From Octopus vulgaris (Eukaryota), in contig OX597828.1 in the NCBI GenBank assembly GCA_951406725.2, positions 44,454,001-44,518,000 on the forward strand: a DNA stretch of 64,000 nt, given 5' to 3'. The notes under the pieces are model-generated. The model saw only the letters and a list, made by a program, of their open reading frames with translations, ran no database searches and was not told the origin of the DNA. The position numbers and the translations under genes were made by a program. This document shows positions 3,685-45,015 of the stretch, in pieces. Position 1 is the first letter of the stretch; each line of letters opens with the position of its first letter.

Positions 3685-4268
3685 CAGAGAGAGAGAGAGA
3701 GAGAGAGAATGTGTGAGAGAGGCACACGCACGTTTACTTCGCTAGTTCTGTTTTGTACAGTATATTTTGGATACACAATGTCTTTGTGCAAGGAATTTCT
3801 CTTTTATAGATACTGCTTTTTAATCTCTAATTTATTGGTTGTAAGCGAATTCTATTTTCTTAATATTCGATGTTATCATAATAAGCACGTCTGGGCGTAT
3901 TAAGTATATGACAGCAGTATTTCGTTCCCCGGTGCTTGTCTATTTATTCCAGGCAGTGTGTACGTTTTTAATGCTTCTGACACCGTCTGTCGAATGGCAC
4001 CGCCCAAGTGCCGAAACCATAGTGATATTCATTATGCAGCTGATGATGGGAATATATGTTTGATATGGGTGTTGGTGAATCTTTTATACGTTGGGTTCAC
4101 TTCATTCTGAATTTTCCTTCAATCCGAAATGGTTGAACAAAGTTTTTCGGTGTTCATGGTCTATTGTGATTACATTTATCGATATTGGTTGATTGACTTA
4201 ATAGATAATCTTATTAAGCAAGAATAATGAATAATAATTAATGGTTTCTAGTTTTTGGGATGTTCAGT

Positions 4269-15870: not shown

Positions 15871-15943
15871 ATAGCGAACACGGTGTTTCTGGATCACAAA
15901 CATATAAAAAAAAGGGGAGTTTGAATTCCTTCTTCAGCGCTAT
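15871..15943 (-). ncRNA. Type I hammerhead ribozyme motif
   Basis: Minus strand: ATAGCG-CTGAAGA-aGGA..CAAAC..GTTTG..TCCa-GAAA-CACcGTG-TT-CGCTAT; 6-bp stem I, GUU site. Confidence 0.75.
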
Positions 15944-24575: not shown

Positions 24576-24621
24576 GACACCTGATGAAGGCTGGACGGTA
24601 TATCAGTAGAAACGTTGTGTT
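24576..24621 (+). ncRNA. Minimal type I hammerhead ribozyme motif
   Basis: GACAC-CTGATGA-aGGCTGG..TCAGTA-GAAA-CG-TT-GTGTT; palindromic AACGTT stem III. Confidence 0.7.
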
Positions 24622-33142: not shown

Positions 33143-33229
33143 GCGGCTGAAGAAGGCTATGGACACTCATTTACATCAATTATGCATTGTTATAAACCGT
33201 CTAATAAAGGCCCGAAACATATGTACCGC
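33143..33229 (+). ncRNA. Type I hammerhead ribozyme motif with long loop II
   Basis: GCGG-CTGAAGA-aGGCT..GGCCc-GAAA-CATATG-TA-CCGC; palindromic ACATATGT stem III, GUA site. Confidence 0.72.
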
Positions 33230-33258
33230 TAAATCCTTTGCATCATGTTTTTATTTTA

Positions 33259-40866: not shown

Positions 40867-41244
40867 ATGTATGTATGTATGTATGCATGTATGTATGTAT
40901 GTATGTATGTATGTATGTATGTATGTATGTATAGCTATGGCAGCCCGATAAGGTTCGAAAATCGATTAAGGCTGTTCATAATTTTTTTAGCCGTGTATGC
41001 GATGTGCATATATAGATATGCATATATGTATATCTACAGCGTAGGCCTTGGGTATTTTATAAGCTATATCTTGATATTGTGTAGACACAGATCTCCATTG
41101 ACAGTCCGCTGATATTGAAATAAATGTTAAACATTTATGGTATACACACTAGTAGATCCAGTTTTCTATTGCTGCTAGATTTAATGTGTATATAAATAGA
41201 TTGTTGCTTATTTATCTGGGATTGGTTAAGTGACGTAGATACGT

Positions 41245-41280
41245 CTGATGAGACCTTAATAAGGTCCGAAAATCAATTAA
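41245..41280 (+). ncRNA. Hammerhead core (CTGATGA, perfect stem II, GAAA); stem I uncertain
   Basis: CTGATGA-GACCTTaatAAGGTCc-GAAA-ATCAAT-TA; related partial copy at 40941-40974. Confidence 0.5.
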
Positions 41281-41370
41281 AGCTATACGTCATATCTTTT
41301 TCGTCTACGGACAATTGGTTATACGTAGGTTCAAATGCATATACACAGATATGTATACATGCATACACTC

Positions 41371-41503
<133 letters not shown>

Positions 41504-41685
41504 TAAATAAATGGCACAACGAAGCACCGATATTTACTGGAAAATAGCGAATGTAATAAATACGACGCTAATGTATAGCTTCACTGCGTATGTACTAGTA
41601 AAGACGCGTGTGTGCAACAAACATGAAAAAAATTGTCTTACCTCTAGGAAGAACATCTGAAAAATGAAAAACCTAGAAACGGATA

Positions 41686-41757
41686 ATGCAGGACCGGTTT
41701 CAGACTCTCCAAAATACGTCTGCCAACGTATATTTGATTTGTCATCATCAGCTGCAT
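41686..41757 (-). ncRNA. Type I hammerhead ribozyme motif (best example)
   Basis: Minus strand: ATGCAG-CTGATGA-tGAC..ATACGT..ACGTAT..GTCt-GAAA-CCGG-TC-CTGCAT; 6-bp stem I, palindromic ACCGGT stem III, canonical GUC site. Confidence 0.82.
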
Positions 41758-42299
41758 AAACCTCAACAACATTTCAAATGTTGCCACATCCATGCCAGTA
41801 CACTCGTCTGAACGCCAAGGCGTTAACAGAACGAGAACAGTGAAGAAGTTTCAATGAAAAAAGTAATGCAATACGAGAGTATTGCTTTCCAGTAAAGGAT
41901 AGCCCGTAAGGGTAAAATATATATATAATGTGAGTTTAGAGAGATATATCATCCAGGCGGATACTGTGGTGGCTCTCAGTTATGCTCCAGGTTACGGCTA
42001 ACCGCATCGATCAGTATTTAACGTCTATGACTACAGTTACTTTGTCAGTCACTCTGTAATCAAAGAGAGAATATTCTCCAAAATGTAAACTACAAGTCAA
42101 TGATGTGTATATTAATTCGCATGAATAAATAATATTAGTTCCAAATTATGGCACAAAAGAGAAGGGGTAAGTCGATTACATCGGCCCCAGTGCTCAAGAA
42201 TGGAATGTAACAATATGCTACAAAGGCTGTGTCAGTGGTTAGGTATGCCTGTTGCTATAGCAGCATACTAATCCCTGAGTGGTTTAGAATTAGCTCAGT

Positions 42300-42540
42300 A
42301 GCTCAGTTCATATACAGGTCAAGGAAAACTATCAGCATGAATTCACTTTACTGCCATACTAGGCAATGTTGGACCAAGGGTCATGGGCAGAAAAATACAT
42401 CATTCAAAAAGCGCCTACAGAAATACCAAACTCAGGACTTTATGGTTACTATCAAAGTGACAGAGCATAGAATAAGCAATTTGAAGCTCAAAGAGGCCAT
42501 TTTTAATAATAAACTGAAATTGGTAATTAACAACGGATGA
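42300..42540 (+). mobile_element. Decayed Penelope-like GIY-YIG endonuclease C-terminus
   Basis: YTGQ..*IH in one frame, then KKRL..F.VTI..E....LKLKEAIFNNKLKLVINN*, resembling the PLE C-terminal LKEAxxIxxLKPxIN motif. Confidence 0.45.
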
Positions 42541-42690: not shown

Positions 42691-43301
<611 letters not shown>

Positions 43302-44886: not shown

Positions 44887-45015
44887 CATTGAGTGAGTGA
44901 GAGGGCAGTACATGCCATCAAAATGACGATGAGAAGATATATATATGGCTGCTAGGTTTAATGTGTATATAAATAGATTGGTTGGTTATTTAACTGGGAT
45001 TGGTTAAGTGATGTA

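Follow-up and report, generated by a model that had tools for sequence, protein, structure and literature searches.

A protein-free 429-bp non-LTR retrozyme family in the Octopus vulgaris genome, represented by a solo copy with a predicted dimer-dependent hammerhead ribozyme

The window (the whole 64-kb stretch of DNA analyzed here) contains a hammerhead motif on its minus strand, and the element that carries it is best explained as a solo copy of a protein-free 429-bp family. We consider it probable that the hammerhead, as predicted, is cut only in a dimer, after C41692, and that the cycle of the family is driven by Penelope-like RT/endonuclease. The family belongs to the non-LTR retrozymes, genomic parasites of a known kind, and is likely spread by Penelope-type enzymes. 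The hammerhead is real, and the family is new within this known kind. We found no description of it in the article text searched, PMC7229834 included; supplements may list cephalopod retrozymes.

Results

A type I hammerhead with an extended, mismatched stem II

Judged from its sequence, the motif at 41757 to 41686 (minus) is a type I hammerhead (Table 1). The segments claimed for it in the preliminary description are all present at the places given there, including the inner ATACGT/ACGTAT helix of stem II and the ACCGGT palindrome, and cleavage had correctly been predicted after GUC, at the bond joining 41692 to 41691. The core nucleotides are intact, as had been reported, with C3 U4 G5 A6 N7 G8 A9, G12 A13 A14, A15.1-U16.1, and H17 all satisfied. 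Stem II is extended, again as described, but a U10.1·U11.1 mismatch at its base had been overlooked. The canonical 10.1-11.1 pair is absent from the window copy, and because the stem starts with U·U, only three Watson-Crick pairs (GAC/GUC) lie next to the core. A strict type I descriptor gave one match in the 64-kb window and none in 100 shuffled windows.

Folding predicts that stems I and II form, within the whole element too. Stem I is open-ended, and its six Watson-Crick pairs have probabilities of 0.66 to 1.0, also within the whole element. The pairing probability of stem III in the monomer is 0.0, so the window copy would need a dimer. The isolated ACCGGU palindrome is predicted to form a self-duplex of -8.3 kcal/mol; the double-hammerhead fold was not obtained on cofolding the dimer. 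At the level of the family, an active ribozyme is a plausible reading. The window copy would be a weaker candidate for an active ribozyme than originally claimed, because stem III is unpaired in the monomer model, the window holds no second copy, and stem II opens with U·U. This mismatch need not be fatal. The accessible part of Perreault et al. (PMC3088659) describes natural hammerheads with U·U at 10.1·11.1 and higher cleavage with it than with other mismatches; as the best-tolerated mismatch there, U·U falls within the known variants.

Table 1. Features of the hammerhead motif and the element that carries it (window coordinates)
Feature	Position	Strand	Basis
Stem I, 5' arm AUGCAG	41752..41757	-	Sequence; pairing probability 0.66-1.0
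Catalytic core C3-A9, CUGAUGA	41745..41751	-	Sequence; family segments
Stem II: U10.1·U11.1 mismatch, 3 bp GAC/GUC, 3x3 internal loop, 12-bp upper hairpin (41709-41737)	41702..41744	-	Folding
Stem II strands TGAC and GTCT	41744-41741 and 41705-41702	-	Sequence
GAAA core (41701-41698) and palindromic stem III ACCGGU (41698-41693), predicted inter-ribozyme pairing	41693..41701	-	Folding; family
Predicted cleavage site after GUC, C17 = 41692	41691..41692	-	Hammerhead consensus, general knowledge
Stem I, 3' arm CUGCAU (41691-41686), and predicted extension pairing with 41758-41765	41680..41691	-	Folding, family alignment
Solo full-length retrozyme unit, 429 bp	41491..41919	-	Ends by BLAST of 30 loci; length from L011 head-to-tail junction
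Interval of 66 nt separating the two fixed 3' ends of the family; Penelope-type "tail" when following a unit	41854..41919	-	Arm ends
Microsatellite of (TA)n/(TATG)n/(GA)n adjoining the element 3' end	41371..41490	.	Sequence; TA repeats after other arms

Other hammerhead-like motifs in the window

The motif had been labeled the best preserved, which is arguable. A second well-formed type I hammerhead, at 15943 to 15872 (minus), likewise combines an intact core (CUGAAGA, with a GUU site) with a stem I of 6 bp; its stem II begins with A·A followed by GGA/UCC, its stem III has 3 bp, and it was missed by the strict descriptor solely through the stem III length limit. Penelope-type hammerheads with a palindromic stem III and a stem I of 4 to 5 bp occur at 33143 to 33231 and 24576 to 24620 (both plus).

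The 5' part of the motif had also been said to recur near 4032 (plus). That match is real (local score of 34, against a maximum of 30 in 500 shuffles), but it comprises just 17 nt (the 5' arm of stem I and CUGAUGAUG) and does not extend, and with no more than this in common, a copy of the 429-bp family at 4032 was ruled out. No matching 3' arm of stem I is present there. The hammerhead-like remnant at 4032 to 4125 (plus), with a stem I 5' arm and core as at 41757 to 41686, is likely a member of another family. An old repeat family with a degenerate hammerhead-like core (237 candidates; 73 to 80% identity among the best copies) is represented at 41150 to 41350 (plus), where it adjoins the microsatellite of Table 1 from the opposite side, and by a partial copy near 44944.

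The hammerhead lies in a solo 429-bp unit

The unit length is the distance between successive heads in one locus (L011), where the end is joined directly to the start; unit positions are numbered as 41920 minus the window coordinate. Alignment of the window copy to other copies spans 41928 to 41490, the excess to 41928 being TA-rich microhomology. The unit has a GC content of 0.37 and a longest stop-free frame of 68 aa, and no similarity of the unit to Penelope proteins was found. No RT/GIY-YIG open reading frame is present in the unit or in the 64-kb window. Folded as a circle, the monomer is more stable than its shuffles (-111.9, versus -85.8 +/- 5.8 for 40 shuffles). The adjoining microsatellite is likely the insertion target. 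Two more dispersed repeats, found in many loci and contig sets, lie just 5' of the element (41930 to 42034 and 42700 to 43200).

The single copy at 41919 to 41491 is ordinary. It belongs to a clade of about a dozen copies and differs from the clade majority at 3 of 389 sites. Most of the clade carries U·U at 10.1·11.1, and the mismatch in the window copy thus is inherited rather than a private defect. The copy is likely a dead end and not the active source of the family, because it has a single, mid-unit ribozyme with a dimer-type stem III, and a cut would only halve it.

Family size and variation of the ribozyme

The preliminary description placed the hammerhead inside a repeat family. This is upheld, with the support coming from genome-wide copies and not from the match at 4032; the BLAST search that it proposed recovered relatives throughout the assembly (2.8 Gb, 227 contigs, microsatellite-rich). 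Exact anchors along the unit occur at 88, 112, 331, 369, and 554 places in the genome, with the 3' part of the unit at no fewer than 554 places, and these counts imply at least several hundred arms. The unit is shared by older subfamilies of about 73 to 91% identity, in which the end also is joined to the start without an open reading frame.

The core is intact in 135 of the 146 family segments that span the motif, many of them chosen by a pattern containing the core; among the segments from L091 to L150, nearly all of which were chosen otherwise, it is intact in 39 of 45. Across the 146 segments, position 17 is A in 95, C in 48, G in 2, and a gap in 1. The pair at 10.4-11.4 is C-G in 69, U-A in 60, U·G in 9, and something else in 8, and the U·G copies are basal to the U-A clade in the tree. 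Position 10.1·11.1 is occupied by A-U (72 segments), G·U (24), U·U (21), A·C (19), G-C (8), or other combinations (2), and by A·A in 11 loci of an older subfamily. The ACCGGT palindrome is present in 126 of the 146.

Selection on the core was assessed from shared variants, which fall at 0 of 27 core and stem positions and at 23 of 358 positions elsewhere (Fisher P = 0.39, for a sample much of which was chosen by a pattern including the core). Among 12 aligned copies, one pair changed on both sides, covariation counts were hardly above those of shuffles, and the compensatory change in stem II represents a single event. As selection on the core lacks statistical support, the functional signal lies in the architecture, the restriction of position 17 to A or C, and one compensatory change. 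Two intact cores one unit apart were found in 5 of 170 loci (L004, L019, L029, L063, and L169). The 10.1·11.1 series and these dimeric loci offer material at hand with which the importance of cleavage and circularization for spread can be addressed.

Insertion scars

Among copies of the family are 5'-truncated, partially tandem, and inverted arms, and there are two fixed positions for the 3' end, separated by 66 nt. The 3' ends of 205 arms in 150 loci fall at unit position 429/1 (125 arms), at about 66/67 (45 arms; range, 60 to 68), or elsewhere (35 arms), and TA repeats follow 139 of the 170 arms with a fixed end. Forty-four insertions have two diverging arms. Both ends are fixed in 24 of these, and 20 have a nonfixed end; where both are fixed, 22 of 24 insertions have one end of each kind (P = 1e-7). 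Passes of one insertion share subfamily haplotypes, differing at 80 of 1,030 diagnostic sites when about 360 differences would be expected. In a comparison of a circle with a linear dimer as the template, differences between first and second passes recur across loci in 16 of 149 cases, and locus-private variants are present in both passes in 9 of 125, counts compatible with either. The longest arm in the 150 loci measures 867 nt, and none of these loci contains an array of three or more units, which rolling circle might give. In L170 (G000:C6:71051300-71057300), several family arms lie in a locally repeated block, with two near-identical two-armed insertions 2.7 kb apart.

Matching scars have been described for Penelope-like elements (Craig et al., 10.1101/2021.04.23.441226, in the part available), and the mechanism by which two internal start sites give rise to a tail has been demonstrated in vitro (Frangieh et al. 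2024, accessible text of PMC11167929). The two fixed priming sites, one per arm, are further genomic support for the mobilization of animal retrozymes by Penelope enzymes.

Penelope-like elements in the genome

The genome also holds a Penelope-like family that is young and retains an intact RT and GIY-YIG frame of 781 aa (L201 to L216; e.g., G000:C16:20834300-20843300); its 3' sequence spans about 1.1 kb. Of the 16 copies retrieved, 12 terminate at one fixed site and 4 at another about 35 nt away, and both ends adjoin (TA)n. Near the end of the element is a probable hammerhead of the U3-A8 variant type (UUGAUAA). A search for a parent element among 12 Penelope 3' regions gave no match to the unit apart from a single, marginal AT-rich stretch of 30 nt. 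The best 150 of 6,136 GIY-YIG candidates were scored; 19-nt matches of the unit to 5 of 30 GIY-YIG loci were dismissed as low-complexity. Since it has no sequence in common with the unit, the 781-aa family is a candidate source of the enzyme and not a shown parent.

5' ends of arms and RNA-derived contigs

A tentative reading, and a rather unlikely one, is that 5' truncations prefer unit positions 226 to 243, at the predicted cut (228/229) and directly past it, as a record of germ line ribozyme cutting, and that the sublineages amplified in succession, with A·A, A·U, G·U, U·U, A·C, or G·C, form a natural series of a ribozyme working without the usual closing pair. In a sample of 100 anchor-picked arms, unit 221 to 238 holds 14 starts and the three following 18-nt bins hold 3, 1, and 3; bins further upstream reach 8 to 18% and more, and the peak has a P value of 0.04 against the mean. 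The other samples each consisted of 100 listed matches to an anchor and were scored by eye. For a second anchor, with seven rows in common with the anchor-picked arms, 15 starts fell in 227 to 243, 1 in 244 to 261, and 4 in 208 to 226. A third anchor gave 19 starts in 244 to 293, 12 of them in 263 to 279, and a fourth gave 21 in 294 to 355. This peak reaches roughly double the 3' background, and a hot spot that has no ribozyme site nearly equals it. We rejected the peak as a cleavage record and do not count it as evidence, because the hot spot in the control stretch is almost as strong. Other possible causes are TA microhomology and a stall at stem I. In the accessible part of PMC11167929, the in vitro Penelope system has no such 5'-end preference at the cut.

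Family sequence was found in the contig sets of 4 of 24 sequencing runs (three presumed RNA and one unlabeled), as assembled contigs that are uninformative on strand, ends, and level. One contig ends at 41691; given the adjoining A/C polymorphism at 41692, this is explained as an assembly break and not as a cleavage end. The private letters of the window copy were not seen in the three presumed-RNA contig sets, which carries no weight either way.

Discussion

Proposed cycle and alternative explanations

In the cycle that we favor, head-to-tail dimer transcripts would pair their ACCGGU palindromes and be cut twice; the 429-nt monomer so released (unit 229 to 228) would then probably circularize. 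A Penelope enzyme would then nick (TA)n, and each DNA strand would prime reverse transcription at its own one of two fixed internal sites, which lie 66 nt from each other. Priming at two sites would give rise to arms that are 5' truncated, partly tandem, and inverted. The order of events, from a dimer cut twice through monomer and circle to Penelope reverse transcription, is a model drawn from the accessible part of PMC7229834. In the text available of PMC11167929, an anole element inserted in vitro without need of ribozyme cleavage.

The chief alternative holds that linear, uncleaved RNA is what is copied. On this view, the unit would derive from a Penelope-like element, either by internal deletion or as a solo pseudo-LTR, and would be copied from multimer transcripts that stay linear and uncleaved, with no circle and with a hammerhead that is inherited, weak, and dispensable. 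Such a derivative would explain why the scars equal those of an autonomous element and why arms do not exceed two units; 86 of the 100 anchor-picked arms extend beyond the cut region, and 10.1·11.1 is relaxed, both of which also speak for it. Published work, as far as accessible, points the same way, with unprocessed RNA as the main substrate in vitro (PMC11167929) and retrozymes derived from pLTRs in Li et al. 2026 (10.64898/2026.07.22.740005). This alternative has more difficulty with the direct junction of unit end and start, which holds no open reading frame even in the older subfamilies, and with Penelope protein matches, which occur in 17 of 170 family loci and never contiguous with the unit. 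Also against it are the retention of A or C at position 17 and the compensatory change within stem II. On balance, we regard copying from linear RNA as unlikely.

It is very improbable that the host has taken over the window copy as a functional intronic or untranslated region ribozyme, like amniote HH9. Hammerhead_HH9 (RF02275) is indeed the best Rfam match over 41560 to 42300, but its score of 21.2 bits (E = 0.014) is under the gathering score of 52; the Rfam scan of the whole window was dominated by microsatellite matches to miRNA models. The good preservation of the copy would be expected of a young insertion, and its stem III is predicted to depend on a dimer. A chance match, for which the modest folding z-score of the 86-nt region might speak (-1.73; 12 of 200 shuffles equally good), is refuted by the shuffled windows and the family segments and has next to no probability.

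Comparison with known systems

Canonical metazoan type I hammerheads, as described in the accessible part of Cervera & de la Pena 2014 (PMC4209133), share with the present motif a 6-bp helix I, an intact core, and, as predicted here, a helix III of 1 to 2 bp with a palindromic loop that needs a dimer. They have a conserved G10.1-C11.1 pair where the window copy has U·U, and, unlike them, the window motif has a helix II that continues via an internal loop into a 12-bp hairpin.

The family resembles EN+ Penelope-like elements (10.1101/2021.04.23.441226 and PMC11167929, in the parts available) in its 5' truncation, partial tandems, and inverted 5' arm, as well as in its hammerhead, its bias toward (TA)n targets, and a 3' tail that may or may not be present between the two fixed ends. 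The tail measures 66 nt, compared with 30 to 40 in those elements. Unlike them, the 429-bp unit has no RT/GIY-YIG open reading frame, and it has no homology to the 3' regions examined.

The closest comparison is with metazoan non-LTR retrozymes, for which we rely on the accessible portions of Cervera & de la Pena 2020 (PMC7229834) and Li et al. 2026 (10.64898/2026.07.22.740005). Arrays of the 429-bp unit reach two units at most in our sample, and its long stem II begins at a noncanonical pair that varies; both features differ from other metazoan retrozymes. Being a monomer, the window copy is not an "active" retrozyme by the definition of Li et al. Its length is slightly above the 170 to 400 nt of retrozymes in the animals tested in PMC7229834 and inside the 51- to 972-bp range of Li et al. 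In common with metazoan non-LTR retrozymes, the family has a short, low-GC, noncoding unit that contains a single type I hammerhead; its copies occur head to tail and, in large numbers, as dispersed monomers, with Penelope-like elements alongside. It adds one retrozyme family to this genome.
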